This document shows, piece by piece, positions 25,867 to 53,422 of a DNA stretch of 64,000 bases (positions are counted from its first letter, which is position 1; every line of letters starts with the position of its first letter). A program made the position numbers and the translations under genes. The notes below the pieces were generated by a model. It made no database searches, was not told the DNA's origin, and saw only the letters and a program-made list of their open reading frames with translations. The stretch is from Candidatus Latescibacterota bacterium (lineage in GTDB: Bacteria; Latescibacterota; UBA2968; GCA-2709665), in NCBI GenBank assembly GCA_965222075.1, contig OZ244937.1, positions 1,632,001 through 1,696,000 of the forward strand. Reading direction: 5' to 3'.

Positions 25867-26608
25867 TCTTCACCCCTCCTGCTATTTACGCACTCTACTC
25901 CAGGCCGCACTGAAGGATTTTCATGTACGCAGGTCCGACGTCTCCACGCCGGCTGAAATCTCGCCCTCTGACCAATCTACCAGGAGTTGCCGCCCCCTGC
26001 CACCCGGCATCAAGCAGTGGTTCAGGACCTGGTTCCTGAACCTGGTTCGTCCTTTCTGCCTGCCAATGCCATCAACGTCCCTATTGCCTTTTCTGTCAGG
26101 CAGTTACGCAGAATTTCGACCTGGTGCCGACCTGGTGCCCAACTTGTGCGGTGTCCTGGTCCCGACCTGTGCGGTCGGCCTGGGAAAAGTCGTCGTTACT
26201 CACGACTCCCATAAATATACACCAGGCAAAGTGGAAAAGACAGTCAAAGATGAGGGTGGCCCTGAGCCTGGAGAGGCTGCTTCGAGCCGGTGCCGGAAGG
26301 ATGCTGCAAACCTGCCAGGACTTCGTGGTCTGCCTGCCAGCGGACGAGGCAGGCGGCGGGCATGAAATTCGTGTCTTACTCGACGAGAGCTTTGAACTCC
26401 TCGCTGGCCATGGGTTCGTGCGTGTCCCAACGGCCGCGCATCTCAATTAGAACACGCTGCTTCGACGGCGCGGGCTGCGGGTTGATACGCACCAGGTTCA
26501 CAAGGTCTTTGCACGCATCCAGATTCATCCTCACGTCTGCGGGAGCATCGGGAGCATGAGATAGGAGCGGGGACCAACCGGTTGCCTGTGAAGAACACTG
26601 ACAAGCTG

Positions 26609-26864
26609 TCTCAATATGTACACGGGGCCTTGAGGTGGCGTCATATATCGTGATATCCGGACGGCCGCCTGTCTCGACCTCAGTCTCGCTTTCGATAGAC
26701 TCGGCCTTGAATGGCTCGAATCCGGCACGTTTTGCCACCTTATCGACTAACGCCTGGCACACTCCTGGCGATGCATTAAGGATATATCGCAACGATTCTG
26801 TGGCGATGGTTTCCGGCGATGGCGCAAGCCTTCCTGCCAGGTGCGCCAGGAGACTTTTGTTCAT
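26609..26864 (-). pseudogene. Truncated duplicate of PD-(D/E)XK nuclease N-terminus
   Basis: DNA nearly identical to 32423-32678; breaks off right after VHIE. Confidence 0.8.
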
Positions 26865-26979
26865 ATTCCCTTATCTCCTACGTTGGACGACGGCCGCCTG
26901 GGGGATAGAACCACGATGGCAGTCGCCATTTGGAGCGACGCTCCGATCCCGGCGCCGTCAACGTGAACGCTCACGACGG

Positions 26980-27015
26980 GTTTCAATCCTTGTTCTGGTG
27001 GAAGTATTGCTCTGA
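26980..27015 (-). CRISPR. Solitary copy of the main array repeat
   Basis: GTTTCAATCCTTGTTCTGGTGGAAGTATTGCTCTGA. Confidence 0.9.
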
Positions 27016-28080
27016 TAAAGAATCGGCCGCCCCCGCGAAACGTCCTACTGAACCGCGTCCGCCATTCGTCGCCAATCCTCCGCTGAACCGCGTCCGCCAT
27101 TCGCGCCAATCCTCCGCAACGCGATCTACTCCTCCTCGGTTGCGGTTCGCGCGCCCAAGTGCACCCGGGCTTGATTGGGCCCAGAATTGCGCGTCCCCGA
27201 TCCGGAACGGCGACGCAATGGCCATTTCGAGGTTGCCTGCCGGCGCCAATCCAAACGACTTGCGGATTGCTCGATATACGGCCAAGCCGAGGCACACCAC
27301 GAGCCTCGGCTCCACAATCTCAATTTCCGGCACGGTGTAGGTCTCTGCTGCCTTCTCCAAATCTTCAACCGGCACGGATTTACTCATTGCTCCATACTTT
27401 ATGAATGGAAACAGGTTTGTCGTGTAGGTTTGCTCCAATCCGATTCCAAAGTGAGTGGAAAGCAGGCTCTTGAGATTCCTGTTGGTCGGCAACTTCGGAT
27501 CGTGCCCCAGCGTAACCAAATTAGAATCTACAGGTTTCTGCAAGAACTCATCCGAACACCAATCCTGGAGCACAAGCATGATATCGGCATTGAGGTTCCA
27601 GGCGGACTTCGTGTAGGGCGATACGAAATCGCACTCATAGGCGCCGGAATGATATTCGCCGATTCCCCTGTATCCGGGAAAAACGTTGTCCCGGCGGTGG
27701 CGGGCAAGCGCCGCGAGGCGTTCCCGCTTTCCGATGCGATTCGCCCGAGAGGGGCTTTGGGTCTTTTGGGGGCGGGCAAGCGCCGCGAGGCGTTCCCGCT
27801 TTCCGATGCTTTCATGCATGCCTGGGCTCCTCTGGAGATCCCTGAGCCTGAGGCCGTCTTTGGGCTTCAGTTCACTGCGGCAATGCGGACACACGGTCGC
27901 CTTTTTGCTGATTCGCTTGCGGCATTGCGGGCACGTCACGCCCGCGAAACACGCGAGGATGATGCCGATGGGGCCCAAGAGCAGGCCTCCAAAGAACCAG
28001 CCCAATCCCGATCCGCCGCGGCTGCTGCCAATGAGCACGGCGATCAGTCCGAAGGCCATCCAGAGCACGAACAGTTCCAT
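26983..28080 (-). CDS. TM + zinc-ribbon domain fused to uracil-DNA-glycosylase-like domain
   Basis: AGGAGG RBS; CPQC...CPHC; ADIMLVLQDW, TNRNL, YTTNLFPFIK, EIEIVEPRLVVCLG; stop codon lies inside the CRISPR repeat. Confidence 0.65.
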   Translation of the reverse strand: MELFVLWMAFGLIAVLIGSSRGGSGLGWFFGGLLLGPIGIILACFAGVTCPQCRKRISKKATVCPHCRSELKPKDGLRLRDLQRSPGMHESIGKRERLAALARPQKTQSPSRANRIGKRERLAALARHRRDNVFPGYRGIGEYHSGAYECDFVSPYTKSAWNLNADIMLVLQDWCSDEFLQKPVDSNLVTLGHDPKLPTNRNLKSLLSTHFGIGLEQTYTTNLFPFIKYGAMSKSVPVEDLEKAAETYTVPEIEIVEPRLVVCLGLAVYRAIRKSFGLAPAGNLEMAIASPFRIGDAQFWAQSSPGALGRANRNRGGVDRVAEDWREWRTRFSGGLATNGGRGSVGRFAGAADSLSEQYFHQNKD

Positions 28081-28505
28081 GCCGTTTCCTCCTGTGTGAT
28101 GGCGCGTCACAACCTTCCAGCCCGCACGTATCGCCAAATCGAGCCTGACGACTCAACGGCATCCCGGACGAGCAACAATTCACGCGTCGCGGCTGCCTGG
28201 CAGTGGTTTCACGTCGATGTTGGGAGACGACATGTCCAGATCGGTAACGTTGATCGTCGTCGACGCGCTGACCTTTACGGCCTGTAAGATAACACAAGCG
28301 CGTATATTCTCCGGGTTGACCTCGTCGATAAACCCTGCATATCGCCGCGCTCGCGCCGTCGATCAATGAGTTTGTGAGCAATGTTTCGATGGTGACGCAT
28401 CCGCTCATCGTGTTCGAAAAAGCGATGCGTGCCTGCGTCGTCGAGGTTGCCGCGCACATAGAAGGGTTCGCCGTCGTCGGCACCGCCTTAGAAACATGCC
28501 GAGAC

Positions 28506-28575
28506 GTTCAATCCGCTCCCCCCTGCCTGCCGTGCACAGCACGGCGCAGGCAGGCCACCGAAGTGAGGGGAGATG
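28506..28575 (-). CRISPR. Solitary second-family CRISPR-like repeat interrupted by a 33-nt palindrome
   Basis: GTTCAATCCGCTCCCC[CCTGCCTG..CAGGCAGG]CCACCGAAGTGAGGGGAGATG; same repeat at 32836. Confidence 0.65.
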
Positions 28576-28665
28576 CCCGGGTTGCCAGCGAAACGGCGTA
28601 ATTGACGGGTTTCGCAGATGTCGTCAGGCGCCCGGGGCTGAGGAGCTTGTTCATCTCACATCCCA

Positions 28666-29520
28666 TCACATGAACAGCTCGCGCAACCAGACGTTGGCTT
28701 CCGGGATACCGTCGGCGTCGAACACGAACTCCTGCCCACGGCCCACCGTGTCGACGTAAACCCACGGTTTGCGGCGTCGCCAACGTCTCCTATTGCTATG
28801 GTAGCTGAGCGTTGGACGACGACTGCCTGGGGGATAGAACCACGACGGCAACCGCCATTTACGACGACTCGTCGAGCCCGGCGCGGTCAACGTGAAACGG
28901 TCGCCGTTACCGCTGAACAGGCCGGCGCCGCTTCGCGCGGTCAGCCCCTCGAAATTGAGCGTCTCTCTCGCGATGTAGACGGTGTTGTAGCGCCACCGCC
29001 TATTCAGGTGGGGATGCGCAGACAGCCACGGACGTGCGGAGCGCGCACGAGACAGATTCTCCCCGACGGGCACGACCTCGGAAACCTGGAGCCAACCGAA
29101 CAACCTGTGCACGTCAGGAGCGTTCCGGACGTACCGCCATGTGCCCCCGTTCCCGGGTTCCACGGCACGAAACCAGCCGAAGAACAGAAAGAGGTCGCCA
29201 GGCCCAACACCCTGATTTTCCAGATGGCGTTGAGCGATCTCGACCTGCCCGAAGGCCGGCCGCCAGCCGGGCGAACGCGCAAGGGCATCGGCGTTCAGAT
29301 CCGGATCCAGATGGCACCGGTGCTTTCCCTTCACTCGACCGTTGGTCAAACACTCCACGATCGGGCCGAGAGACGTGCCACGCCACCGTACGTCCCTGAA
29401 TCGCGTCGGACTTCTGGGGTACGGAATCGGCAGAGACAGGGCAGTACCGTCCGGAAAAATGGGACTCGCCCTCCCCCCGTTGCTGGAATCGAATCCCTTG
29501 CGGCTGAAAACGATCTTCAT
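28666..29520 (-). CDS. Nucleotide-modification-associated domain 3 (Nmad3)-like protein
   Basis: MKIVFSRKGFDSSNGG..SPI, CHLDPDL, AFGQ...HL..QGV..GDLFLFFGWF, HPH, GRGQEFV. Confidence 0.8.
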   Translation of the reverse strand: MKIVFSRKGFDSSNGGRASPIFPDGTALSLPIPYPRSPTRFRDVRWRGTSLGPIVECLTNGRVKGKHRCHLDPDLNADALARSPGWRPAFGQVEIAQRHLENQGVGPGDLFLFFGWFRAVEPGNGGTWRYVRNAPDVHRLFGWLQVSEVVPVGENLSRARSARPWLSAHPHLNRRWRYNTVYIARETLNFEGLTARSGAGLFSGNGDRFTLTAPGSTSRRKWRLPSWFYPPGSRRPTLSYHSNRRRWRRRKPWVYVDTVGRGQEFVFDADGIPEANVWLRELFM

Positions 29521-29621
29521 TGCTTCTCTTCCTCCTCTTATGGTCCCGTGCGGTTACCCAAACTTACAGCAATCAGCAGAAAGTCAGCAAAGTCAACAAT
29601 ACCATTCTTGTCCAATCAAAC

Positions 29622-29687
29622 CGGTTCATCCCCACGCCTGTGGGGAGTATCTGCCGGCCGTTGTTTCAATCCTTGTTCTGGTGGAAG
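29622..29687 (-). CRISPR. Composite relic: type I-E-like repeat + short linker + 25-nt part of the main repeat
   Basis: CGGTTCATCCCCACGCCTGTGGGGAGTA then GTTTCAATCCTTGTTCTGGTGGAAG. Confidence 0.8.
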
Positions 29688-29833
29688 AATTCGTACAGAT
29701 TAAAAACCGCGCCATCTGGCAGGGGCGTATCGGGTCGACTTCGTCCAGCTCAATGTCGGTGGGAAGGAAACTCCAGAATGCACCAACGCACGGGATCTCG
29801 GGGTAGCCAGCGGGCAATTCCTCGGGCTTTCTA

Positions 29834-30379
29834 TTAGGCCGAGCGACGGAGCGCGTCCGCCAACGCCGCAAATCGGCCGGCAACCGATGAACTCGGATGC
29901 GGGCATGGCAGGAAATCAATGTCGGCACGCCGCAAGGCCGTCTGCGCCTCGCGACCCAACGCGATGACCCTCCGCCCCTCAACCTCATACCGGGTCACCG
30001 CCTCGATTGAAAGCTTCATCAATTCGCGAGGCACCTTCCGCCGCCGGTTTTCCCTCGGCAAGAAATGGCACGCCTGTGTGATGTAGATGTTCCCACGCGT
30101 GCGCTCGACATCCTCCAGGATCCGGTCAAGAGTGCTGTTGAATGGGATGTCTGGCAAGTACCCCAAACACTCAAGGATTGCACGTTCCTGATTCACGGAT
30201 TCCGCATCCAACCAATGCTTCGCCACGAGTACCGGGCCGGTCATGCTGTTCGATATTTTCTGAATGGGCGATACCCAATCGCCATCAAACCCAACGTCGG
30301 CCAATGTCACCCACTGCTCCTGGAACTGATCCGGAACCTGAAGCTCGCGACGACGTGCGATGATGTCCTCTCTCGTCAC
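29834..30379 (-). CDS. Uracil-DNA-glycosylase-superfamily-like protein
   Basis: GAGGAG RBS; IYITQACHFL, RRVIALGREA, C-terminal HPS motif. Confidence 0.65.
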   Translation of the reverse strand: MTREDIIARRRELQVPDQFQEQWVTLADVGFDGDWVSPIQKISNSMTGPVLVAKHWLDAESVNQERAILECLGYLPDIPFNSTLDRILEDVERTRGNIYITQACHFLPRENRRRKVPRELMKLSIEAVTRYEVEGRRVIALGREAQTALRRADIDFLPCPHPSSSVAGRFAALADALRRSA

Positions 30380-30489
30380 GGTTTCTCCTCCTCAATCGGC
30401 GCCAGCCGAGTCCAGCTTCCGCGATGGCGGATTCGACCGGCGGCGGACTTATGGGCAGGGCTTACGCATCTCGTGAGGCGTCGTGTTTC

Positions 30490-31164
30490 GGCCGCCCCCG
30501 CGAAACGTCCCACTGAACCGCGGCCACCATTCGTCGCCAATCCTCCGAAACACGATCTACTCCTCGATTACGGCTCCCACGCCAACCCGGGTGTGATTGG
30601 GCCCAGACTTTCGCGTCCCTGATCGGGAACGGCGACGCAATGGCCACTCTCGAGGTTGCCTACCGGCGCCAATCCAAACGACTTGCGGATTGCCTGATAC
30701 ACGGCCAATCCAAAACACACGACGAGTTTCGGCCCAACAAGCTCTATTTCCGGCACGGTGTAGGTCTCTGCTGCCTTCTCCAAATCTTCATCCGGCATTG
30801 CTCCATGCTTTATGAACGGAAACAGGTTTGTCGCGTAGGTTTGCTCCAATCCGATTCCAAAGTGAGTGGAAAGCAGGCTCTTGAGATTCCTGTTGGTCGG
30901 CAACTTCGGATCGTGCCCCAGCGTAACCAAATCAGAATCTACACGTTTCTGTTTCCGCAAGAATTTATCCGAACACCAATCCTGGAGTACAAGCATGATA
31001 TCGGCATTGAGGTTCCCGGCGGACTTCGTGTAGGGCGATACGAAATCGCACTCATAGGCGCCGGAATGATATTCGCCGATTCCCCTGTATCCGGGAAAAA
31101 CGTTGTCCCGGCGGTGGCGGGCGAGCGCTGCGAGGCGTTCCTGCTTTCCGATGCTTTCATGCAT
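30490..31164 (-). pseudogene. UDG-like protein paralogous to the 26983-28080 C-terminal domain, frameshifted near 30650
   Basis: Near-identical to 27020-27820; ORF 30568-31164 continues as MAIASPF..WAQSHPG in the frame of 30462-30647. Confidence 0.7.
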
Positions 31165-31256
31165 GCCTGCACTCCTCTCGAGATTCCTGAACTTGAGCCG
31201 GTTTGCCCTCTGCGAGCCTTACGCGAGTTCCCGATCATTCAGGCGATCTCCGCGTG

Positions 31257-31281
31257 GTTTCAATTCTTGTTCTGACGGAAG
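31257..31281 (-). CRISPR. Degenerate partial main repeat
   Basis: GTTTCAATTCTTGTTCTGACGGAAG. Confidence 0.7.
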
Positions 31282-31594
31282 AGATTTCCAGCGGTAACGG
31301 CATGACTCCGATGAAAATCAACGAGTACTGTCAGCACGCGTCCCGTGCGCCCTTATCCTGAGCGCAGTCCTCATCAACCGGATCGACGACCCGTCTCGGG
31401 ATTGAGGATCCGGGAATCCATTTCGGTTCCTGCCACGCAGAGGTATCGCCTCACGTCATTGAAAATAGGGGAGCATAAGATAGGAGCGGGGACCAACCGG
31501 TTGCCTGTGAAGAACAGCTTCAGCTCGCTGCAGTTTCCTGGTAATCCGGTGTCGCTGATTCAAAGTTCATCCGCACTGACAAGCTGTCTAAATG

Positions 31595-32678
31595 CTAAGC
31601 CGAATCGGACGGCGAATTCTCCTGCGTCGCCTGTTCGAATTTATCGATGGTTTCGCGCATCTGAGTAACCGCATCTTCGATTACTCGATCCTTGTCGACG
31701 CCACTTGCCAGCCGAATCGGAAAGCACAGACAATCTCTGTACTCTTGATGGTCCGGGCATATCCGTTTCACACTTGACCAGTGTCTGATGAGCCCACCCC
31801 ATTCCGTTTTGTATACCTCACACCATATGGGAGTTATACCGGAATCGCGCCATGCTATGATATCAACGCCCAACCACAAACCAAACTGTAGATCTTTTCC
31901 TGCTGAAAAGTAGCGACCCTTCTTGAAATAGGAACGTGTAGGATTCACGCCCTCAAAGCTTGCAAGACCCTCGTTCTTAAGAACTTCGGCAATTTCCTCG
32001 GATAAATCACTGTAGTTAATCATACGACGGGGGACATTCATGTCGCTGGTTTCTTCCTCGCGCAAGGGAAGAAAAGCCTCTACATCCATCCGTTCTGCGA
32101 GTCCGAGAAGCTGAACGACGTCCTGCTCAACAGAAGTGTCTCCGGCTTCATTTGCACTTCGTTGCAACGTATCTAATATAGATCCCCAACTTGAGATAAG
32201 CAGGTTACGTCCCGAACCAATGCGAACCCCCTTCATATCGTTAATTGTAGTCTCAGTTCCGACCTTAAGCTCCTGTTTAACACACCGTTCCTTCAACTCC
32301 TGCCAGATGCTGACGATTCGGGCCTCGGGCACGACGAAAAGTAACGCGGATTCGGGTTCGTCGGAGAGCGAGTTGAGGTATCCAACTGGCTGGAGACGCC
32401 GTCAGTCCTGCCCAGAATTTATTCTCAATATGTACACGGGGCTTTGAGGTGGCGTCATATATCGTGATATCCGGACGGCCGCCTGTCTCGACCTCAGTCT
32501 CGCTTTCGATAGACTCGGCCTTGAATGGCTCGAATCCGGCACGTTTTGCCACCTTATCGACTAACGCCTGGCACACTCCTGGCGATGCATTAAGGATATA
32601 TCGCAACGATTCTGTGGCGATGGTTTCCGGCGATGGCGCAAGCCTTCCTGCCAGGTGCGCCAGGAGACTTTTGTTCAT
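31595..32678 (-). CDS. PD-(D/E)XK nuclease-superfamily protein, split by a 1-nt frameshift near 32390
   Basis: ETIATESL, GRPD, IENKFWAGLT..QPVGYL..LLFVVP continuing into ORF 31595-32332. Confidence 0.75.
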
Positions 32679-32782
32679 ATTCCCTTATCTCCACGTTGGA
32701 CGACGAAATCCCGCCTGTCGCGGTATAATCGAGCCTGGTTCAGGACGAAATCCTGCTCGGTCGAATAAAGGTCAATCTTCAT

Positions 32783-32948
32783 GCAGAGTGAGGGGAGATG
32801 GGATTCCTGAAGACTATTTCTTCCGCGTATGAATAGTTTCAATCCGCTCCCCCCTGCCTGCTGCAGGCAGGCAGGCCACCGAAGTGAGAGGAGACCTGCG
32901 CTGCCTGCGTTCCTTCCCCTCGGCCGTCTGAAAGTTTCAATCCGATCC
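32783..32948 (-). CRISPR. Relic mini-array of second repeat family (partial, interrupted and partial repeats; 2 spacer-sized gaps)
   Basis: ..GTGAGGGGAGATG - 35 nt - GTTTCAATCCGCTCC[palindrome]CCACCGAAGTGAGAGGAGAC - ~38 nt - GTTTCAATCCG. Confidence 0.7.
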
Positions 32949-33007
32949 AATCGGCGGGCATGAAATTCCTGATCTTACTTGACCTGGACTTTGGCCAAAA
33001 TGAAGGT

Positions 33008-33415
33008 CTATATGTTTTCTGTAATAACTTGAAGTGCTGTTATGTCTTCAAAGTCCTTGACGTTGTGCGTTACCAGGGGAACACCGTGTCTGACCGTGCA
33101 GGCTGCAATCCATGCGTCGTTGGGTGAAATCGGCCTTCCCTTTCGATCACACTCCGCAACCAACCGACCATAGCAGCGGGCAATCTCGTGGTCGTAAGGA
33201 ATAACAACAAAGTTACGCAGAGTTGTTTCCAGCGCTCTTCGCTTTCTTTCGCCCCAGCCTCTTTTCTCCGCACCGAAATAAAGCTCGCCTACAGTGATAA
33301 AGGTAATTGCAAGTAAACGATTCTGGATATGCGGCTCATACGCCGCGGCTACGCGGCCGCCTTTCATCAGGTATGAAACTATGTTCGTGTCGAGAATGAT
33401 CCTGGTGTCGCTCAT
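33008..33415 (-). CDS. vapC: PIN-domain (VapC-type) toxin
   Basis: ILDTNIVS, ITVGELYFG, NDAWIAA, LVTHNVKDF. Confidence 0.9.
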   Translation of the reverse strand: MSDTRIILDTNIVSYLMKGGRVAAAYEPHIQNRLLAITFITVGELYFGAEKRGWGERKRRALETTLRNFVVIPYDHEIARCYGRLVAECDRKGRPISPNDAWIAACTVRHGVPLVTHNVKDFEDITALQVITENI

Positions 33416-34407
33416 GGCCGAGCACCTGTCTTACCGCCAGGATGTCGCAGTTCGTCGATTGTCGCCTCGAAGCCGTCGTTTTCCTCATCCGGCCACGTAC
33501 CAAACAGCGTCCGTACGTCCGCCATTGGCTGCACATTCTGCGAACGCGCCAACTCCTGGAGTGTCGGCGATTTCCAGAACGTTGGTGAAATCGGCGTTCC
33601 CTGTGGCAGGAGATCGGCGGCTTCATCTTGCCGGTCCTCCAGCCGCTCAATATCGTGAATCTTGATGTCCGTTATTTTCCGAGACATGGGGTCTTCCCTC
33701 GCCTCTCCCACGACGCGGACGTATTGCAGAATGTTTTCCAGGACTTCGTCTTTTTGTTCTTCATCGAAGAGACAAAGGAGCGGATCTCCGGTGGATGGAT
33801 GCACACGGCACCTCGTTCCATCCTCCTTGAAGTCCGCCATCAACAGCCGACCTTCGATCACCCGGGTGTTTACTTGCGGTCCCTTGATTCGCTCCTGTAT
33901 CCGCGTGACGCCGCGCGGCGTCAACGACATCCGAACCGCCTTCTGCCGGTGAGTCAGCGTAAACTCGATCTTGTCAATTCCCTGACTGAAAAGCATCCCC
34001 AAGTCACGCCACGCCATTAATACACCCGTGTCATATCCGGCCGGAAATGCGCTATTGACATTGTCTCTTTGAACCGCTTCCAGCCCACCAATCGCCTTCT
34101 CCAGGATTTCCAAACCAAAGTCCATTTCGCGGAAGGATAGGCTCTCCTGCCTGCGCTGGAAGCCCAACACAGCCGTCGGGCTTCCATGCGTTAGCGACAC
34201 CAACTCAAGTTCCACCTCTGCCTTTATCCTGTGAGGCGGTTGGCCTCGACGCAAGCTGCCAGCATCGCCTTGCAGGACCCGCCCGGTCCGCTGAAGCGCT
34301 TTGTTGAAATTAGAAAGAAATCGCAGTAAATGAGACACCGGGATCTTTCCCGGCCCAACTGCCTCGCCATCAAAACGAATCTTCAGTAGCGAATTGTTTT
34401 CATTCAT
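33412..34407 (-). CDS. Hypothetical protein, translationally coupled to the PIN toxin (putative unusually large antitoxin)
   Basis: AGGAGG RBS; ATGA overlap with PIN gene; C-terminal FWKSPTLQELARSQNV...GTWP. Confidence 0.7.
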   Translation of the reverse strand: MNENNSLLKIRFDGEAVGPGKIPVSHLLRFLSNFNKALQRTGRVLQGDAGSLRRGQPPHRIKAEVELELVSLTHGSPTAVLGFQRRQESLSFREMDFGLEILEKAIGGLEAVQRDNVNSAFPAGYDTGVLMAWRDLGMLFSQGIDKIEFTLTHRQKAVRMSLTPRGVTRIQERIKGPQVNTRVIEGRLLMADFKEDGTRCRVHPSTGDPLLCLFDEEQKDEVLENILQYVRVVGEAREDPMSRKITDIKIHDIERLEDRQDEAADLLPQGTPISPTFWKSPTLQELARSQNVQPMADVRTLFGTWPDEENDGFEATIDELRHPGGKTGARP

Positions 34408-34480
34408 ACGAACCTCCTGTCTTCGTTTACGTGGCACATTGCAGTCTCACTCTCACCACAAACTCCGCACGTACCCCAAC

Positions 34481-34717
34481 TCATGCTGCTCCAGTATGGT
34501 CAGCAGACAGGCAGGCCAGCCGCTCACCCCGGGGCTCCGGTATTGGATCGCCGAACTCTCGCGCGGTGTCAATCCAGAGATCCATCCCTTCATTAACGTG
34601 TCTGAGCGCGGCTTCTTGTGTGTCGCCGTGAGCCATGCATCCGGGAAGCTCGGGCACTTCAGCCACAAAGACACCGTCGGCATTGCTCCAATAGAGAATG
34701 ATCTCGTACTTGTACAT
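34481..34717 (-). CDS. hicB: HicB-family antitoxin (orphan)
   Basis: YEIILYWS..DGVFVAEVPELPGCMAHGDT.E.AL...WIDTARE.G.PIPEP. Confidence 0.85.
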   Translation of the reverse strand: MYKYEIILYWSNADGVFVAEVPELPGCMAHGDTQEAALRHVNEGMDLWIDTAREFGDPIPEPRGERLACLSADHTGAA

Positions 34718-34786
34718 TGACTTACTTTATCCAGTCACGAAATAGCATGGCATTGCACCCCGATCCTTCAGGCAAGGGCCGCGTAC

Positions 34787-35005
34787 TCATAAATCTGGGG
34801 TCTCAATGGTGCGAACGGGGCGGTATCGTTCCCACACCACTTGCTGCAAGCGCTCAACGGTCTCCGGTGAGAAGTGCCTCTCACCTGTCTCGACGTTGAC
34901 TCGCGCCGGGACATTCTCAATGAGTAAGAGCCGCCCATCGAACTCAATGTGGTACATCACCTTTTTTTCAATCAGCATCTCGTTCCACACGCGGTCGTCA
35001 GGCAT
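34787..35005 (-). CDS. YgiT-type (MqsA-like) zinc-finger protein, Cys-less variant
   Basis: LLLIENVPARVNVETGERHFSPETVERLQ. Confidence 0.8.
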   Translation of the reverse strand: MPDDRVWNEMLIEKKVMYHIEFDGRLLLIENVPARVNVETGERHFSPETVERLQQVVWERYRPVRTIETPDL

Positions 35006-35034
35006 CGTCCGGTCTCCTTTTCGTCATCCGCTCC

Positions 35035-36600
35035 TCATCGCCCTTCTCCCAACTCTGCCAGGAGTTGCCGCCCCTTACTCGTCAGTCGGTATTTCTGCTT
35101 GCTGCTGGTCGGCTTGTCCGGGATGGTCATTTCCAGCCACCCGGCATCCAGCAGCGGTTGCAGGTAGTTTGTCCGGAACGTTTTCCAGTGCTTCAACCCA
35201 AGGCAGTCCATGATCTCTTTCGCCATGCGAGGCACCCGGCAATGCCAGACAACTTGTGCGGTAACTTGTGCGGTAACTTGTGCGGTCAGGTCCTCCAGGC
35301 TGTTCGCAATCCGCTGCAACATATTGTTCGCAAAGGTGTTAGGGTCTTCCTGGGCGTTTCTTTCAACTTGTGCGGTGGCCTGAACTCGGCCTGGTCCGGA
35401 TTTGATGCTGACTTGTGCGGTCGGCCTGGGAAAAGTCGTCGTTACCCACGACTCCGACCTGCCTGCCGATCCGAGCTCGGCGCAGGCAGGCACCTCAATC
35501 ACCGGCTCAGCCACTCCGTGTTCGCGGCACAGGTCGCGGATGCGCCGGATGCCGGAACCGACCTGCCTGTGCGTCACCGCACGCAGACAGGTCCTCTCAA
35601 CCGCCTCCATGCGGTGCAGGATGCCGAACAACAGCGGATTGCGTGGAATGCTCTTGACGCCAAGGTCCGCTTCCGTCATACCGGCGGGCAACCCGCCCGG
35701 GCTGACGATCTCGAGCCGGTCCATAAACAGATATACCTGTACATTGGCGGTGGAGCGGTAGTCACGATGGGCCAGGGCGTTGACAACCGCCTCACGAATG
35801 GCCTCTTCCGGCAGTTCCGGCCGTTCTTCCCGCCTTACGCGCTTAATGATGTACTCCACATTGATCTTGGAAAGAATCCAGGCCATCACCTCCTCAATCA
35901 TCGAATAGACATCGCCGTGGAAGTCGCGCCTGTCGAGAATACGCACCTTGTCGGTTCCCATGAAGAGCGCGCACGCCACATCTGCGCTGATATTGAACTT
36001 ACGAATGTCCCGGGCCAGCAACCAGGCGCCCGCGTGCGCCATGCGGCCATCTTCACCGACCAGATGCAGGTTGCGCAGCGCGGTCTCCGGCTCCATATCA
36101 GCCGGTATTTTGGCGCGACGCTGAAACAGGGACCAGTTCTCTTCCTCAAGGTCTCTCTCCAACAAAAACTTGTCGCACGCGGTTTCATCGAAATGGATCA
36201 GCCCTTCCTTGTAGAAAAACTCCCGGATCTCCTCACGCGACATCTGCTGACTGCTCGCCCCCTCGCGGATGAAGAACTTTCCGCCGAAAGAGTAAGGCTT
36301 GCTGTGCTGCGCGGGCACCGTCACGCAGAGCACGCCATCCACGCTTTCGACCTCCACCGCGATGGGCGGCTCCGCGCTGCGGGCGATCGACTGCACCCGG
36401 GACTTCAAGCGGTTGTGGTCAGCAACCCCGCAGACCACCCCATCATCGGCCACGCCGATCAGAATTACGCCGCCGGTGGCATTGGCAAAGGCGCATATCT
36501 CACGCCCAAGCCCGGAAGTGCCCGAGCGCTTGAACTCGATGGTAAAGCCCTCGCCAAGGGCGGTCAGGCCAGAGAGAGTCTTTTCGTTCATGTTGATCAT
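35035..36600 (-). CDS. AlbA_2 (Schlafen-like) + RecG-C/HATPase-like + wHTH protein
   Basis: GEGFTIEFK, ICAFANATGGVILIGVADDG, AIREAVVNALAHRDY, DRLEIVSPGGL, TAQV repeats, MTIPDKPTSSKQKYRLT. Confidence 0.85.
   Translation of the reverse strand: MINMNEKTLSGLTALGEGFTIEFKRSGTSGLGREICAFANATGGVILIGVADDGVVCGVADHNRLKSRVQSIARSAEPPIAVEVESVDGVLCVTVPAQHSKPYSFGGKFFIREGASSQQMSREEIREFFYKEGLIHFDETACDKFLLERDLEEENWSLFQRRAKIPADMEPETALRNLHLVGEDGRMAHAGAWLLARDIRKFNISADVACALFMGTDKVRILDRRDFHGDVYSMIEEVMAWILSKINVEYIIKRVRREERPELPEEAIREAVVNALAHRDYRSTANVQVYLFMDRLEIVSPGGLPAGMTEADLGVKSIPRNPLLFGILHRMEAVERTCLRAVTHRQVGSGIRRIRDLCREHGVAEPVIEVPACAELGSAGRSESWVTTTFPRPTAQVSIKSGPGRVQATAQVERNAQEDPNTFANNMLQRIANSLEDLTAQVTAQVTAQVVWHCRVPRMAKEIMDCLGLKHWKTFRTNYLQPLLDAGWLEMTIPDKPTSSKQKYRLTSKGRQLLAELGEGR
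35458..35490. repeat. 33-nt in-frame palindromic insertion (adds PACAELGSAGR)
   Basis: CCTGCCTGCCGATCCGAGCTCGGCGCAGGCAGG. Confidence 0.8.
35562..35591. repeat. 30-nt in-frame palindromic insertion (adds TCLRAVTHRQ)
   Basis: CCTGCCTGTGCGTCACCGCACGCAGACAGG. Confidence 0.8.
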
Positions 36601-36920
36601 CGTCCGCTACGCCAGCATCAGTCGTTCGCCCCCGGGTTCCGGTGCCAACGCCCCCTTCGGAGTTATCCGGCACAGGCAGGAAGAATACGCTCCCTGACAT
36701 AGAATATACACCCTCCAACGTGGAAAAGACAGTCAAAGATGAAAGTGGCCCTGAGACTGGAGAGGCTGCTTCGAGCCGGTGCCAGAAGGATGCTGCAAGC
36801 CTACCAGGACTTCGTGGCCTGCCTGCCGGCGACCCGCATCCAGCCGACCCACCAAAAATCACGCCTGGCCGGATTCATTGTCCTGCCAGGCGAGAAATAA
36901 GGTCTTTGCACGCATCGAAA

Positions 36921-37033
36921 TTCATCCCCACGCCTGTGGGAGCACCAGGAGCACGGCCGGGAGCATCCGGTCCATCCCCACGCCTGTGGGAAGTATCTGC
37001 CGGCCGTTGTTTCAATCCTTGTTCTGGTGGAAG
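36921..37033 (-). CRISPR. Two type I-E-like repeats + partial main repeat
   Basis: TTCATCCCCACGCCTGTGGGAGCAC; CGGTCCATCCCCACGCCTGTGGGAAGTA; GTTTCAATCCTTGTTCTGGTGGAAG. Confidence 0.8.
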
Positions 37034-37247
37034 ATTCCCAACGGTGCGGGACAGTTGGCCGTGGCCACGGGTGAAGTGGACGCCTACGGCGGCAGCCGTG
37101 CTGATTCTGGTTGGCGGCAGTCGCTGAACGCTGGTGGAGGCTGTGCACCAATGTGCCGCAGACGGTGCGAGGGGTACCGCCACGATGCTATTGGTGTAGC
37201 GACCGGTATTCGACTTCACCGTACGTTCACGGCGTCCGGTGGCCCGC

Positions 37248-38111
37248 TCAGCCGCTATCAGCGTTGGGCTTCACCTCGATGATCAGGCGGCAGTGGTCGC
37301 TTGGTCCCCATTCGTGGACATCGTTCATCGCCCGCACCGACACCCTTTCGTGGAACCCGCGCGATGCGAATGCGTAGTCCAATTGATTCGCCGCCGTTTC
37401 CGGTCCGTCTCCTGGCTTGTAGTACGTCGGCACATTTTTCGTGTCGGACGGCACGTCGTCTGGCGCAGTTCCTGCGGGCCGACCGTGAGAAGCCTGCGGT
37501 CCCAGAAATTCCAGTCCGAGCACCTTTATTCGTTTCCAGACCGTGCCTTCGCGTTCCGGCAGTGACAGCCTATTGCCGGTCGCCCCGTAGAACATGTTCA
37601 GATCGCCCGCCGCCAGAATCCTGTGTCTGGCCGGGTTGGCGTGACCGATGAAAGCCGACAGGTCCGAAATGATTCGATGTGCCGAGGCGTCGGAGTAGCC
37701 AACGCTCCAACTGCTCCTGGTAGACGGATGAGGCTTCAGCCAGCGCGCGTACATCGAGACCGCGACGAAATCCTCGTGATCGCTGTCGTGCGGGAATACC
37801 TTCGCGGCGGCGATGGTCCCGATACCGCTGACGCCAATGGCGTCCGCTCCAAGCTCGCTGATGGGTGGCACCTGCTGGTACGGCTCGACCGTGATCCGAT
37901 CAGACAGCTTCACGACCAGCGGCCAGCGGTCGTACAACTGTCGGTTCCAAAACACCGCATCTTCGCATTCGACTAAATGCACCAGGTCGCCGGGTGGACT
38001 CCCCGCTTCCTGCAGGAGTGCCAGGTCCGCGTCGCCATCGTCCGCCATCTGCACCAGTTCACGCCACGGCTGCGCCCGTTTGCTGATGTTCCAGCTTACC
38101 ACCTTGATCAT
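37248..38111 (-). CDS. Endonuclease/exonuclease/phosphatase (EEP) family protein
   Basis: KVVSWNI, LALLQEA, AAGDLN, QLDYAF, SDHC; GGAGGT RBS. Confidence 0.9.
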   Translation of the reverse strand: MIKVVSWNISKRAQPWRELVQMADDGDADLALLQEAGSPPGDLVHLVECEDAVFWNRQLYDRWPLVVKLSDRITVEPYQQVPPISELGADAIGVSGIGTIAAAKVFPHDSDHEDFVAVSMYARWLKPHPSTRSSWSVGYSDASAHRIISDLSAFIGHANPARHRILAAGDLNMFYGATGNRLSLPEREGTVWKRIKVLGLEFLGPQASHGRPAGTAPDDVPSDTKNVPTYYKPGDGPETAANQLDYAFASRGFHERVSVRAMNDVHEWGPSDHCRLIIEVKPNADSG

Positions 38112-38138
38112 CCAATCACCTCCTCATCGCTCATTCCA

Positions 38139-38175
38139 GTTTCAATCCTTGCTCTGGTGGAAGTATTGCCCTGAG
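38139..38175 (-). CRISPR. Degenerate trailer repeat
   Basis: GTTTCAATCCTTGCTCTGGTGGAAGTATTGCCCTGAG. Confidence 0.85.
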
Positions 38176-38285
38176 CTTACGGCCTGGTCCCAATCAATAC
38201 AATCCAAGTCCATTACTTCCGGATGAAAAACCTCGGACCAGGGGCTGAGCTTACGGCCTGGTCCCAATCAATACAATTCAAGGGC

Positions 38286-41200
38286 GTTTCAATCCTTGTT
38301 CTGGTGGAAGTATTGCCCTGGGGCTGGCCGATGTGATCCGGGTGGATTTCACCGGCATGGGGTTTCAATCCTTGTTCTGGTGGAAGTATTGCCCTGGGGA
38401 AACACCAAGACGGAAAGCCGATGCATCGGTTCGATGTTTCAATCCTTGTTCTGGTGGAAGTATTGCCCTGGGGCTGATGAGCGCCCAACCTGAAAGGAGG
38501 ACCGGTGCAAGTTTCAATCCTTGTTCTGGTGGAAGTATTGCCCTGGGCGCCCTGGTCGACTCCATTCTGACCGGCGTGCCGGGTTTCAATCCTTGTTCTG
38601 GTGGAAGTATTGCCCTGGGGATTCCCGGGCGCGTTCGTGTATGCCGATGCGGTGTCGTTTCAATCCTTGTTCTGGTGGAAGTATTGCCCTGGGCGTTTGC
38701 GCATGTGGGGGGGAAAATCCACATGGAAACTAGTTTCAATCCTTGTTCTGGTGGAAGTATTGCCCTGGGATGGGCTTTACCATCACAAGTATGTCTTGCG
38801 TCTATGAAGTTTCAATCCTTGTTCTGGTGGAAGTATTGCCCTGGGATGGGCTTTACCATCACAAGTATGTCTTGCGTCTATGAAGTTTCAATCCTTGTTC
38901 TGGTGGAAGTATTGCCCTGGGAAGCAGATCCTTTACGTTTACGCGAAGGCAATCGAAGTTTCAATCCTTGTTCTGGTGGAAGTATTGCCCTGGGATCATC
39001 CCAACAACCATTGAGATAATCTAAGTATGCCTTTTCAACCGTTTCAATCCTTGTTCTGGTGGAAGTATTGCCCTGGGCGTACGCATCTTTGGGCAGCTTG
39101 TCCATGGCGCCTAAAGTTTCAATCCTTGTTCTGGTGGAAGTATTGCCCTGGGTCCCTGTTCGTTGCGGCCTCTGCCTCTACCCCAGCAGAGTTTCAATCC
39201 TTGTTCTGGTGGAAGTATTGCCCTGGGCCCGGGCCCGCCGGTGGGGGATGATGCTCCTCTGTGACATCCACCAGTTTCAATCCTTGTTCTGGTGGAAGTA
39301 TTGCCCTGGGAACGACTGCATACACTTTCAGGCTTTGTTCGGGTCCAGGTTTCAATCCTTGTTCTGGTGGAAGTATTGCCCTGGGAGCTCCCCGGAGGAA
39401 GCGTTTCGCTGGCCGTATCAGGGTTTCAATCCTTGTTCTGGTGGAAGTATTGCCCTGGGAATTCGGGAGCGTACTTGCCGTCCGACAGCACGATATCGGG
39501 TTTCAATCCTTGTTCTGGTGGAAGTATTGCCCTGGGAGCCGTAGCCTGCCCGCCGTGCCTCACTGTCGGCGTTTCAATCCTTGTTCTGGTGGAAGTATTG
39601 CCCTGGGCAGGTCGGACGCCTGCGCCCGCACCGCAAGCCTCTCCGAGTTTCAATCCTTGTTCTGGTGGAAGTATTGCCCTGGGTGTGGGCATCAAGGTCT
39701 TTGGGACCGGCCTCTGGATGTTTCAATCCTTGTTCTGGTGGAAGTATTGCCCTGGGTCGGACGCCATAGACATCAGCAATATCGGAACAGAGTTTCAATC
39801 CTTGTTCTGGTGGAAGTATTGCCCTGGGTTTCGACGATGAGGTTCAGGTAGACGCGGATGCTTTTTGTTTCAATCCTTGTTCTGGTGGAAGTATTGCCCT
39901 GGGCCAATAATTTCCTCTTCATTTCACACCTTCCTCTGTTGTTTCAATCCTTGTTCTGGTGGAAGTATTGCCCTGGGCGTTGGTTACGGGCGTCCCGTCG
40001 GGGTAACGGGCACTCTGTTTCAATCCTTGTTCTGGTGGAAGTATTGCCCTGGGATTAGAGTGCGTCAATCGGATATAGACGGGGGATGTTTCAATCCTTG
40101 TTCTGGTGGAAGTATTGCCCTGGGTCGGGGAATTCGCCCATGTAATGGTTCAAATAAATTGGTTTCAATCCTTGTTCTGGTGGAAGTATTGCCCTGGGCA
40201 GAGCACAAAACCGCCCGAAGGCAAGGGAATACTTGGGTTTCAATCCTTGTTCTGGTGGAAGTATTGCCCTGGGTGGCTGGCCTGTCGTCCGTCGTTGTTC
40301 GGAAGTAGAGTTTCAATCCTTGTTCTGGTGGAAGTATTGCCCTGGGCTTGGCAGGGCTGGGCAAGATACGGCGCGGCATGGCGAGGGTAGAGTTTCAATC
40401 CTTGTTCTGGTGGAAGTATTGCCCTGGGCCGTTGGGTGTCCTCCGCCCCGAATAGTGTGCATCCATACGTGTTTCAATCCTTGTTCTGGTGGAAGTATTG
40501 CCCTGGGTCTTCGGGCAGGCCCTTGTTCCGCCTGCCGACGATAACGGGGTTTCAATCCTTGTTCTGGTGGAAGTATTGCCCTGGGTCTTCGGGCAGGCCC
40601 TTGTTCCGCCTGCCGACGATAACGGGGTTTCAATCCTTGTTCTGGTGGAAGTATTGCCCTGGGGGGAGCGCTTCTCCGGCCAGGTCCCGATCGTCACCAT
40701 TGAGTTTCAATCCTTGTTCTGGTGGAAGTATTGCCCTGGGACGCGTCGGCGGATGTTGGCCTGGAGCTCAAGCACAACGTTTCAATCCTTGTTCTGGTGG
40801 AAGTATTGCCCTGGGCAGCACCTGGCCGTTGTGTTTTTTTAGCCGTGACAAGTTTCAATCCTTGTTCTGGTGGAAGTATTGCCCTGGGTTCCCCGCCTCC
40901 GGGCTCATCGCTTTTCATAGCTGCTTGTTTCAATCCTTGTTCTGGTGGAAGTATTGCCCTGGGCAGGATGACCCCTCACGATCTGTGCACCCAGGCCATA
41001 GTTTCAATCCTTGTTCTGGTGGAAGTATTGCCCTGGGAAGAGGGCAAGGGCAAGGGTGGGGATGATAACGGCGGTTTCAATCCTTGTTCTGGTGGAAGTA
41101 TTGCCCTGGGGAGGCTAAGGAGGCGTTGGAAAAGGATCTGCCTACGGAGTTTCAATCCTTGTTCTGGTGGAAGTATTGCCCTGGGGAAAAACGGTTGTCA

Positions 41201-44200
41201 CCCTGCCAGGTGATCAATGGTTGTTTCAATCCTTGTTCTGGTGGAAGTATTGCCCTGGGCGCTTTCGGGTCGAACAACGCCCTGGTCAAGCCCGTGTTTC
41301 AATCCTTGTTCTGGTGGAAGTATTGCCCTGGGTAGTCGAACTCGGCTTCGGACAGCAAGTTGAGATGAGGTTTCAATCCTTGTTCTGGTGGAAGTATTGC
41401 CCTGGGTAGTCGAACTCGGCTTCGGACAGCAAGTTGAGATGAGGTTTCAATCCTTGTTCTGGTGGAAGTATTGCCCTGGGTTTGTTCCTTTATGGTATTA
41501 TTTGACTATGGAAACAGTTTCAATCCTTGTTCTGGTGGAAGTATTGCCCTGGGTCTGTGAAACTGGGCTTTGAGGCCCGGCAGGATAAGAGTTTCAATCC
41601 TTGTTCTGGTGGAAGTATTGCCCTGGGCGGCATCGTAGGTATTGGAGTAATCCCATCCAAAAGGTTTCAATCCTTGTTCTGGTGGAAGTATTGCCCTGGG
41701 CAGGTTAAAGGGCACGATCAAGGACGCCCTGGAGAAGCAGTTTCAATCCTTGTTCTGGTGGAAGTATTGCCCTGGGCCTCCGCGATAGGGTCGACGCTGA
41801 GGTGGAGATCTTGATGTTTCAATCCTTGTTCTGGTGGAAGTATTGCCCTGGGACCAGGCCGTAGCCTGCCCGCCGTGCCTCGGAGTCGGGTTTCAATCCT
41901 TGTTCTGGTGGAAGTATTGCCCTGGGCCACCGGTCAACCGTGTCTCTACGCTGCGGCCCACAAAGTTTCAATCCTTGTTCTGGTGGAAGTATTGCCCTGG
42001 GTCGCCACCTCCTGCGGTTGTGCGCCAGTCACCCCAGAGTTTCAATCCTTGTTCTGGTGGAAGTATTGCCCTGGGAACAATGGCCTCCGGCGAGGTCTCC
42101 CACTCGCTAACGTTTCAATCCTTGTTCTGGTGGAAGTATTGCCCTGGGTCGCCCGATTGCGACGCAGCGAAAAACCGCCCGACCTTGGTAAGGGGATTAC
42201 GTTTCAATCCTTGTTCTGGTGGAAGTATTGCCCTGGGAAGAGGCCACGCGGGCCCAGGCCAGCGCAGCGATAAAGTTTCAATCCTTGTTCTGGTGGAAGT
42301 ATTGCCCTGGGGCCAATGCAGCACAGATGATTGCGAAAGCTAAAACATCCATGTTTCAATCCTTGTTCTGGTGGAAGTATTGCCCTGGGGAACTTATTTG
42401 CTTGTTTCTGGTCTATTATTCAGCGTGTTTCAATCCTTGTTCTGGTGGAAGTATTGCCCTGGGGGGGCCCCAGGCCCGCCGTCCCTCACCCTTTTCTCAG
42501 TTTCAATCCTTGTTCTGGTGGAAGTATTGCCCTGGGGTACATACCCATCTTCTACATTGGACGCCCGATCTCTGTTTCAATCCTTGTTCTGGTGGAAGTA
42601 TTGCCCTGGGGTACATACCCATCTTCTACATTGGACGCCCGATCTCTGTTTCAATCCTTGTTCTGGTGGAAGTATTGCCCTGGGTCATTGGCAGGATCGA
42701 CCTCATCCTTGCCTATGAGAGGTTTCAATCCTTGTTCTGGTGGAAGTATTGCCCTGGGCATCGCCTGCCTTCAGCTCAAATTGGACGGGGCCTTGAAGTT
42801 TCAATCCTTGTTCTGGTGGAAGTATTGCCCTGGGTTCTTTCCATCCCCACTCTCTCAGAGGATAGCGCTGGAGTTTCAATCCTTGTTCTGGTGGAAGTAT
42901 TGCCCTGGGACCAGTGAGGGAAGTTTCCCATCTCCGCTTACCAGTAGTTTCAATCCTTGTTCTGGTGGAAGTATTGCCCTGGGCCCCCTTATGCTGGAGT
43001 GATGGGATGCGTGATATAACGTTTCAATCCTTGTTCTGGTGGAAGTATTGCCCTGGGCCCCAGTCGCCCGGGGCGCATTTTCGTTGCCTTAGCTAATGTT
43101 TCAATCCTTGTTCTGGTGGAAGTATTGCCCTGGGCGCCACATTCGCATATATATTCACAATCACACATCATAGTTTCAATCCTTGTTCTGGTGGAAGTAT
43201 TGCCCTGGGATCGGAAATCGAGCAGAATATCATATCGTGGATGGACGAGTTTCAATCCTTGTTCTGGTGGAAGTATTGCCCTGGGAACGGTTGACGCGAG
43301 GTGGCACGTTCGCACAGTGGCGGGTTTCAATCCTTGTTCTGGTGGAAGTATTGCCCTGGGTGCCTGGCGAGAGGCTTGATGCGATAGGCATGGAGTTGTT
43401 TCAATCCTTGTTCTGGTGGAAGTATTGCCCTGGGTCTTTGTTGAAATCTCCGGCAGGCCTTATGTTCTCCAGTTTCAATCCTTGTTCTGGTGGAAGTATT
43501 GCCCTGGGCGCAGAGTAACAGGCCGCAGGCGATCAAGCTCCACGAGTTTCAATCCTTGTTCTGGTGGAAGTATTGCCCTGGGAGCTTAAGGCCGGCCAAG
43601 CATGGGGGCCGAAATATCAGTGTTTCAATCCTTGTTCTGGTGGAAGTATTGCCCTGGGCGCAGGGCAGGCAGTGAGCGCGCCCGGGCGCTGGGGTTTCAA
43701 TCCTTGTTCTGGTGGAAGTATTGCCCTGGGACCTGCGGCAGGCCTTTCTAGGGGACGCCGATGTATAAGTTTCAATCCTTGTTCTGGTGGAAGTATTGCC
43801 CTGGGCACCAGGTCCGGGTGATTATACTGCGTTCCATTTGGTTTCAATCCTTGTTCTGGTGGAAGTATTGCCCTGGGCGCTTCAAATCAACATCGACGGT
43901 CTCTGCATCAGGGACGTTTCAATCCTTGTTCTGGTGGAAGTATTGCCCTGGGCTTGTCACTGTAATCCGCGCCGATCATCTCCCATTCGTGTTTCAATCC
44001 TTGTTCTGGTGGAAGTATTGCCCTGGGGCAGACGAATCCGAGCTACAAGGACATAGCGGAAGATGGTTTCAATCCTTGTTCTGGTGGAAGTATTGCCCTG
44101 GGCCGGGGGGGCTCTCCTCCCCGGCTTCGTCGTCCGGGTTTCAATCCTTGTTCTGGTGGAAGTATTGCCCTGGGAAAGAGAGGGACGAAGCACAAGGCCA

Positions 44201-46761: not shown

Positions 46762-46775
46762 AATTGTCCCTCTGT

Positions 46776-47441: not shown

Positions 47442-47442
47442 C

Positions 47443-50515: not shown

Positions 50516-50519
50516 TAGA

Positions 50520-51503: not shown

Positions 51504-51520
51504 TTTACATGTCTCCTTCT

Positions 51521-53293: not shown

Positions 53294-53322
53294 GATTTTT
53301 TCCTTTTAAAATGGAGATTATA

Positions 53323-53422
53323 ATTCTAAATCCTTGTTTTAATGGATTTTATGATATATATTTTAACTTAACAGAACCATACCATGTTTCAATCCTTGTT
53401 TTGATAGTGGACTTCCAATGAT
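53323..53422 (-). ncRNA. Mini-CRISPR (two degenerate repeats, one ~26-nt spacer): CreR-like regulatory crRNA
   Basis: Repeats GTTTCAATCCTTGTTTTGATAGTGG (53386) and ATTCTAAATCCTTGTTTTAATGGA (53323); spacer matches 53474-53491 at 16/18. Confidence 0.8.

Follow-up and report, generated by a model that had tools for sequence, protein, structure and literature searches.

A type I-B CRISPR array in a Candidatus Latescibacterota genome is followed by a tail of 12 kb in which solitary CRISPR repeats stand between accessory genes. The array and its tail lie in a stretch of 64,000 nucleotides (nt) of contig OZ244937.1 (positions 1,632,001 to 1,696,000), hereafter the window. Here we show that repeats of this kind lie at the borders of gene blocks which have been reshuffled, both inside single genomes and from one genome to another. 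On balance, the tail is probably this genome's version of a lineage-conserved cassette tail at the trailer end of the CRISPR locus. As to how it arises, we lean towards shuffling by recombination between repeat copies without a dedicated integrase, with the I-B-type repeat being kept by selection as an intercistronic ribosome-binding element. The comparison suggests that CRISPR repeats are reused to organise, and perhaps express, accessory genes. In the following, G000 is the genome of the window, other G-numbers are relatives and L-numbers are fetched island loci.

Repeats as edges of exchanged gene blocks

Breakpoints were sought by blastn between the islands of different genomes, and 68 solitary repeats were classed. 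A repeat counted under 'ends' when homology stopped no more than 12 nt from it and under 'spans' when at least 50 nt matched on both sides. Homology ended at 40 repeats (34 only ending, six both) and spanned nine (three only spanning, six both), and 25 were uninformative. As controls, repeat-free intergenic midpoints of the same islands gave 31 ends and 36 spans (n = 112), 37-nt windows directly upstream of open reading frames (ORFs) gave 43 and 55 (n = 118), and random positions gave 74 and 289 (n = 514). Gene adjacency was kept in six of 22 comparisons across a repeat versus 43 of 73 inside the islands where no repeat intervened. Homology blocks end in repeats far more often than they cross them. 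A preliminary description of this DNA had proposed the repeats as recombination joints, to be checked on breakpoints in relatives, and this part of it passes the check.

Individual junctions illustrate the pattern. A repeat followed after 27 nt by the ATG of an EEP (endonuclease/exonuclease/phosphatase) gene is common to G000, G003 and G020, which represent three genera. In G003 the order is repeat, EEP and a degenerate repeat abutting the start of Nmad3. At the counterpart of this EEP-Nmad3 point, G000 holds a block of 7.3 kb that runs from the AlbA_2 gene up to and including UDGb and is bracketed by two direct repeats of 68 nt. In each of the two, the tail of an I-B repeat is followed after 12 nt by an I-E repeat; positions 29621-29688 and 36967-37034 are 97% identical. 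G003, too, has this combination of an I-B and an I-E repeat.

Repeats abutting gene starts

A family of proteins of 58-67 amino acids (aa; WHPDGTPY..DY..AG.PVPT..QL..WA) occupies the spacer position between repeats. Its start codon lies 2-5 nt past the repeat in 18 of 19 copies from 10 genomes. The stop codon is found 1 nt before the next repeat in three copies, 11-40 nt before it in three and running into it in seven. Further loci from two collections have the same arrangement of repeat and small gene. Two other families start equally close to a repeat, namely a PEMT-like gene, whose GTG follows the repeat directly (0 nt) in three genomes, and DUF6361, with a distance of 1 nt from repeat to start.

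The 3' end of the repeat, AAGGATTGAAAC, holds a Shine-Dalgarno-like AAGGA 7 nt from the repeat end. Therefore, genes starting 0-5 nt after the repeat would be translatable from a transcript running in the array direction. Among the abutting repeats, 19 of 21 have AGGA, GGAG or GGGA at repeat positions 24-31.

Conservation was compared in nine between-genome pairs, including pairs with G006 and G013, in which Cas1 and Cas7 have no match. The repeat upstream of the small gene is 84% identical. In the same pairs, the small gene is 85% identical at codon positions 1+2 and 60% at position 3, and fourfold sites agree in 110 of 196 cases. The ratio dN/dS between genomes is 0.06-0.32, and the small family is under purifying selection.

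At E <= 0.001, the family has 61 representatives among 1.8 billion, with about 40 short proteins. The small protein has no match in Pfam, its confident model (pLDDT 86) matches no PDB fold at E <= 0.001, and no relative was found in viral contigs with the patterns used. All members were seen in the position between CRISPR repeats and nowhere else, and a genome can have several paralogues, as in the G016a island with five; examples are L035:7786-7959 (-), L013:15458-15631 (+) and L040:7678-7851 (+). This window has no copy.

The same layout in relatives

The cargo genes were searched by DNA in 40 relatives and are clustered in many of them. The repeat family is present in 26 of the 41 genomes, forming true arrays in some. 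Islands of kilobase-spaced, same-strand 37-nt repeats occur in 13 genomes: G000, G003, G006, G009, G010, G011, G012, G013, G016, G017, G018, G019 and G020. Ten of these (all except G000, G011 and G012) have just 1-13 repeat copies, full-length and on one strand, lying 0.2-12 kb apart within one island of 10-25 kb.

The islands of the relatives were fetched and oriented, and ORF families were built across them. The shared cargo pool comprises Nmad3, two EEP families, UDG-like and PD-(D/E)XK-like genes, DUF4432, a ParA-like pair, a PEMT-like methyltransferase, peptidase S51, ADP-ribosylglycohydrolase, DUF4126, a trio of DUF6361, PLD-like and helicase genes, a 945-aa Ig-repeat protein and an insertion sequence (IS). 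Gene order varies among genomes. The trio, with a helicase-C protein of about 1080 aa, follows the last repeat in G006, G010 and G016 (L030:6485-9531 (-), L035:1281-4523 (-)) and looks like an uncharacterised defence system.

Upstream of the islands, a cas operon of type I-B (G000, G012), I-C (G020) or I-G-like (G009) is found, and an active I-C-type array also precedes the island in G016, G018 and G020. The general layout is therefore a cas operon with its own array, followed by a tail that I-B-type repeats divide up irrespective of the system next to it. Profile searches for Cas1 (PF01867) and Cas7 (PF05107) gave no match anywhere in G006, G013, G011 and G019, which keep the tail and an adjoining WYL gene. 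G006 and G013 are one contig each and 97% complete, and these Pfam family searches upheld the cas-less status of G013. G020 and G009 had also been taken as cas-less, based on queries with the Cas6b and Cas7 proteins of G000, and were rejected as such on finding the I-C operon in G020 and the I-G-like operon in G009.

Three repeat families in the tail

The features of the tail are as follows; domain assignments are from Pfam where so marked.

38139..38175 (-): terminal I-B repeat, 35/37 to the array repeat, also preceding the EEP cassette
37248..38111 (-): EEP gene
37009..37045 (-): full-length variant I-B-type repeat, 34/37 to the relatives' consensus
36918..36996 (-): pair of I-E-type repeats (36968-36996 and 36918-36946) separated by a short spacer
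33008..36600 (-): cargo block of Schlafen-AlbA_2/HATPase_c_4, a 72-aa ORF, HicB-like, a 341-aa unknown and PIN (Pfam)
36600-35035 (-): Schlafen-AlbA_2/HATPase_c_4 protein (Pfam)
34717-34481 (-): HicB-like (Pfam)
33415-33008 (-): PIN (Pfam)
32770..32959 (-): degenerate I-C-type mini-array of three repeats (32934-32959; 32836-32895, into which a palindrome is inserted; 32770-32799)
31595..32678 (-): PD-(D/E)XK-like gene in two frames (motif by eye, no Pfam match)
31257..31293 (-): variant I-B-type repeat, 27/37
29834..31164 (-): two UDG-superfamily genes, UDGa copy 2 (31164-30568) and UDGb (30379-29834)
29622..29699 (-): I-B-type repeat (29663-29699, 5' 11 nt replaced) and I-E-type repeat (29622-29650)
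28666..29520 (-): Nmad3 (nucleotide modification associated domain 3) gene (Pfam, E 4.8e-79)
28506..28574 (-): I-C-type repeat with an inserted palindrome, 3' end GGATTGAAC
26983..28080 (-): membrane/zinc-ribbon segment fused to UDGa copy 1
26980..27016 (-): I-B-type repeat, 34/37 to the array repeat
26214..26967 (-): fragment mosaic at the island end
26881-26967 (-): Nmad3 3' piece, in the mosaic
26609-26878 (-): 270-nt exact copy of the PD-(D/E)XK 5' end, in the mosaic
26521-26549 (-): degenerate I-E repeat, in the mosaic
26214-26342: copy of the 53-aa ORF region, in the mosaic

The preliminary description had listed 12 solitary or partial CRISPR repeats in this tail, at 38139, 37009, 36968, 36921, 32934, 32836, 31257, 29663, 29622, 28506, 26980 and (degenerate) 26524. 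All of them carry minus-strand CRISPR-repeat sequence, but they belong to three families, and every copy of each family points the array's way, as had been stated. Genome-wide there are 104 exact copies of the 10-mer GGATTGAAAC, with 93 in this locus and 11 in the remaining 5.3 Mb.

Five copies (38139, 37009, 31257, 29663 and 26980) are of I-B type and fit the array 25-mer with 0-3 mismatches, where shuffles give an expectation of 0. Over the full 37 nt, they match the variant repeat of the relatives at 27-35 positions. This variant, CCCGTTGGGA.TCTTCCATCAGAACAAGGATTGAAAC, is matched by 37009, 29663 and 31257 and forms a true array in G012. Because of this match across 37 nt, the solitary I-B-type copies are full-length variants, and partial copies of the resident repeat, as these three had been regarded, can be ruled out. 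Their spacing in the window is 1130, 5752, 1594 and 2683 nt, as compared with 200 nt to 12 kb in relatives; the regular period and short non-coding spacers of a canonical array are seen at 38286-44695 and are lacking in the tail. A search of the rest of the genome, as had been suggested, found the 22-mer confined to this locus, with 92 matches (91 from the array and the five copies, plus 53386).

The I-E-type family is a 29-nt hairpin repeat (36968-36996, 36918-36946, 29622-29650 and, degenerate, 26521-26549). No I-E-type array was found in this genome. The same-order relatives G026, G035 and G024 have 58, 84 and 14 copies of it with a 61-nt period.

The I-C-type family, also a hairpin repeat, has four copies (32934-32959, 32836-32895, 32770-32799 and 28506-28574), two of them with an inserted palindrome, and forms true arrays in G002, G016, G018 and G020. 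A search with the palindrome-containing form matched G000 and G009 only. The 65-nt structured units at 28506 and 32836 were also considered as a separate mobile element; this was rejected, as G009 has a palindrome-free version as a three-repeat mini-array and four relatives have true arrays. The palindrome itself (core GGCCTGCCTGC, 80 exact genome copies) lies at 28516-28555 and 32847-32886, inside I-C-type repeats, and at 35452-35491 in the AlbA_2 gene. It behaves like a small mobile insert, because 33 nt at 35457-35491 are missing from contigs of other samples. In runs X3 and X6, contigs link two I-C-type copies (28574 / 32836) across four different inserts of 34-36 nt, which suggests that co-occurring strains or relatives in these samples carry active arrays of the I-C-type repeat that is a relic here.

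Cargo of the tail

The cargo of the window consists of EEP, Schlafen-AlbA_2/HATPase_c_4, HicB-like, PIN, the frameshifted PD-(D/E)XK-like gene, three UDG-superfamily genes and Nmad3. The accessory cargo is mostly DNA-modification, nuclease or toxin-antitoxin genes. As first described, the EEP gene starts soon after a repeat, with its ATG 27 nt from the repeat end. The UDG-fusion ORF indeed stops inside a repeat, with its TGA within the copy at 26980.

The tail looks partly decayed here, with two frame-broken genes, fragments, recent duplications and the 270-nt exact duplicate. The PD-(D/E)XK-like gene has an intact 359-aa homologue in G020. UDGa copy 2 shifts frame relative to copy 1 near its 3' end, before a conserved HPG-like motif (identified by eye). 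These two genes are either pseudogenes or affected by assembly indels; one contig each of runs X3 and X6 has a base missing at 30260. A 53-aa ORF at 36739-36900 (+) has a copy of 91% identity at 26214-26342, so that it is found at both tail ends, and it has a match in G003. A 32-nt spacer piece is duplicated ahead of the terminal repeat (38171-38202 and 38245-38276). The island ends near 26000, beyond which ordinary genes are found, encoding a solute-binding protein, an FGE-sulfatase and a TonB-dependent receptor.

Favoured explanation and its weak points

In the explanation towards which we lean, co-oriented full-length repeats, being either remnants of I-B, I-C and I-E arrays or imports from such arrays, would separate accessory gene blocks. 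These blocks would be exchanged by unequal crossing-over, or by homologous or microhomology-based integration and excision of repeat-bearing DNA. Where Cas6b or Cas5d is present, the predicted cut 8 nt before the repeat end would sever AAGGA from the start codon.

Several points weigh against this explanation. Breakpoints without repeats are common, with 30 of 73 non-repeat adjacencies not being conserved, and the method itself gives some advantage to the class of homology ending in a repeat, since any conserved 37-mer stretches the alignment to the block edge. The breakpoint and adjacency counts come from related genomes and are not independent. The Shine-Dalgarno-like motif discriminates poorly, since 33 of the 45 repeats with no conserved gene abutting them carry it as well, and the high repeat identity could result from gene conversion among copies. 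Both AAGGA-driven translation and leader read-through are inferred from sequence. No gene in this window starts within 5 nt of a repeat, and several of its cargo genes are broken. Furthermore, the same-genus G001 (94% complete, 320 contigs) shows no repeat, and gene orientation in the relatives shows no more than a bias: 56 of the family-supported ORFs are co-oriented, as against 38 in the opposite orientation. One reversed operon common to G010 and G013 accounts for about 20 of the 38. In the islands of these two genomes (L029/L030, L020), an opposite-strand operon of about 10 kb and at least eight genes lies between two repeats.

A bolder and rather unlikely extension is a domesticated-repeat platform. 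The array transcript would run on as a polycistronic mRNA, each repeat supplying a ribosome-binding site that a Cas6b/Cas5d cut removes. The cassettes, with their DNA-modification, nuclease and toxin genes and the dedicated 58-aa protein, would then be translated when CRISPR RNA (crRNA) processing or Cascade is blocked or lost, as a back-up defence or addiction layer, and I-B, I-C and I-E arrays would exchange cassettes at repeats.

Alternative explanations

Processing sites offer a possible, if tentative, explanation. The leader transcript would run through the tail, and Cas6b (Cas5d in I-C hosts) would cut every repeat, giving monocistronic mRNAs with an 8-nt crRNA-type 5' handle; this cutting, which may also tie the expression of the cassettes to Cas activity, would be the main reason for retaining the repeats. 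Consistent with this, cas6b is present, the solitary I-B repeats have their last 20-26 nt in common with the array repeat, and the window genes are mostly co-oriented. The leader has a promoter-like site at 44726-44699, and no convincing minus-strand terminator was found between the array and the cassettes. Promoter-like sites in general are not enriched (13 versus 9.1 +/- 2.7 in shuffles). However, the I-E-type copies stand without a cognate Cas6e array context in this genome. As to RNA, two runs contain 6-7% of the sampled words, and the 23 contigs of one run lie over 25550-25807, 30151-30310 and 34598-36571 only, covering just parts of AlbA_2, HicB and UDGb at low depth. Finally, Cas6 processing cannot be the whole story, since the four relatives without a Cas1 or Cas7 match retain conserved repeats.

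It is doubtful that the tail is a neutral junkyard in which an old trailer gathered foreign genes and array pieces, the repeats are functionless decaying relics and the order reflects shared ancestry. The repeats of the small genes are as conserved as codon positions 1+2 while synonymous sites are near saturation, the starts of three unrelated families lie 0-5 nt after a repeat, the repeat-EEP junction is retained in three genera, and within each island all repeats are on one strand. What a junkyard would account for are the frameshifted genes, gene fragments and local duplications of 89-100% identity in the window tail, the many degenerate repeats (24-30/37), the IS transposase that breaks up arrays in relatives and the persistence of repeats without detectable Cas1/Cas7, as expected of relics.

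True integron-like capture, with Cas1-Cas2(-Cas4) acting on long DNA, or another recombinase, inserting gene-sized 'spacers' at repeats, appears quite improbable. Full repeats do flank cassettes with exact edges (e.g., repeat, 4 nt, ORF, 1 nt, repeat), and Cas1, Cas2 and Cas4 adjoin several islands. Nevertheless, the window has no integrase, the flanking repeats are non-identical pairs, one tail holds repeats of three CRISPR types and cassettes persist in genomes without Cas1. In addition, known Cas1-Cas2 integrases measure prespacer length.

An assembly artefact, with the region collapsed or chimeric on repeats, can be dismissed as very improbable: short-read contigs of other samples do break at repeats (e.g., pieces starting at 31257 and 37010), but other such contigs run through I-C-type copies into the flanks on either side (27784-28690 and 32444-33344), the genome was assembled as one contig of 5.36 Mb, and 13 separately assembled genomes are alike, with G000, G003, G006, G010, G013 and G020 being one contig and G018 listed with three.

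Comparison with known systems

The tail had been called an integron-like system, which holds as an analogy only. Like integron cassette arrays, it consists of mostly co-oriented accessory cassettes with a recurring short separator, its order varies and breaks occur at the separator; variable cassette content and order, with breakpoints at the recombination site, were found as in integrons. Unlike in integrons, the separator is an unstructured 37-nt CRISPR repeat, often abutting a start codon. No tyrosine recombinase of the IntI kind was found in Pfam scans of 38 window ORFs. As first reported, the window has no integrase: the seven PF00589 matches in the genome all lie outside C1:1632001-1696000, with the nearest Phage_integrase more than 900 kb away. 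An attC site would be a hairpin-folding inverted repeat at the 3' side, whereas the I-B-type repeat folds weakly (-1.0 to -2.6 kcal/mol) and lies 5' of the genes. With no nearby integrase, no attC-like fold and the separator on the 5' side of the cassettes, the tail is not an integron.

Kupczok et al. in 2015 reportedly described recombination between CRISPR arrays, with spacer exchange. As in such recombination, the repeats here serve as homology for exchanging the intervening DNA; the difference is that gene-sized blocks and three CRISPR repeat types are involved, versus spacers. REP/BIME and the Correia elements of Neisseria are short dispersed intergenic repeats able to influence the expression of neighbouring genes. 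Those are non-CRISPR and genome-wide, unlike the present repeat, which is confined to the CRISPR locus.

According to Shmakov et al. (2023; PMC10120712), CreTA/CreR elements have two repeats 15-60 bp apart encoding a small guide-like RNA. As in these elements, the present repeats lie outside the array, are conserved in related loci and are linked to cargo such as toxin-antitoxin genes. In contrast to these elements, they are 0.2-12 kb apart, enclose protein genes and persist without detectable cas genes. Literature searches, which took in passages of PMC10120712 and PMC12993501, found no published description of genes between CRISPR repeats; such loci might be listed in the supplementary locus tables of PMC10120712.

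CRISPR repeats are familiar as the partners of spacers and, from more recent work, as components of small regulatory guide RNAs. Here, repeats separate protein-coding genes, coincide with block-exchange points and are conserved like coding sequence even where cas genes were not found. If functional, this would be a second use of CRISPR repeats, as a cassette scaffold and translation signal, and a route by which CRISPR loci could shuffle defence genes with no integrase involved. Loci of this kind are mishandled by programs that find arrays or call genes, and the databases already contain proteins whose reading frame continues through a repeat (P0011).

The cas operon and the array

The host genome is one 5.36-Mb contig with 59% G+C, and the sequencing runs that contain the locus are sponge-associated. 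The remaining features of the locus are the following.

54679-53591 (-): WYL regulator (Pfam)
44868..54679 (-): type I-B cas operon (cas8b, cas7, cas5, cas3, cas6b, cas1, cas4) and WYL (Pfam)
53323..53422 (-): mini-array of a repeat-like 53386-53422 (27/37 positions) and another, partial copy at 53323-53344, with about 41 nt separating them
53293-51521 (-): cas8b (Pfam)
47576-46776 (-): cas6b (Pfam)
46761-45763 (-): cas1 (Pfam)
45464-44868 (-): cas4 (Pfam)
38286..44695 (-): active-looking I-B array, with 86 identical repeats of 37 nt and 85 spacers (34-52 nt)

As expected of a type I-B locus, cas8b, cas7, cas5, cas3, cas6b, cas1 and cas4 adjoin the array. The array repeat, in the minus-strand reading, is unstructured and has the 3' end ATTGAAAC. 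Rfam gave no match at the gathering threshold over 25000-56000. None of the 85 spacers matches island cassette DNA beyond 15-16 nt, and four spacers are tandemly duplicated. A spacer close to the leader end, at 44547-44582, is identical over 30 of its 36 nt to the bacterium's own chromosome (C1:2494147-2494176, 100% identity) and may represent a self-target or a prophage target.

The mini-array at 53323-53422 consists of two degenerate I-B repeats in an AT-rich region directly upstream of cas8b. The arrangement typical of CreR/CreA, in which a cas locus contains two degenerate repeats at a distance of 15-60 bp, is present here and not in the cassette tail. By its anatomy, it resembles a Cas-autoregulating (CreR/CreA-like) mini-array. 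Directly upstream of the WYL regulator of the cas operon, a Fic/DOC family gene is found at 55259-55930 (-).

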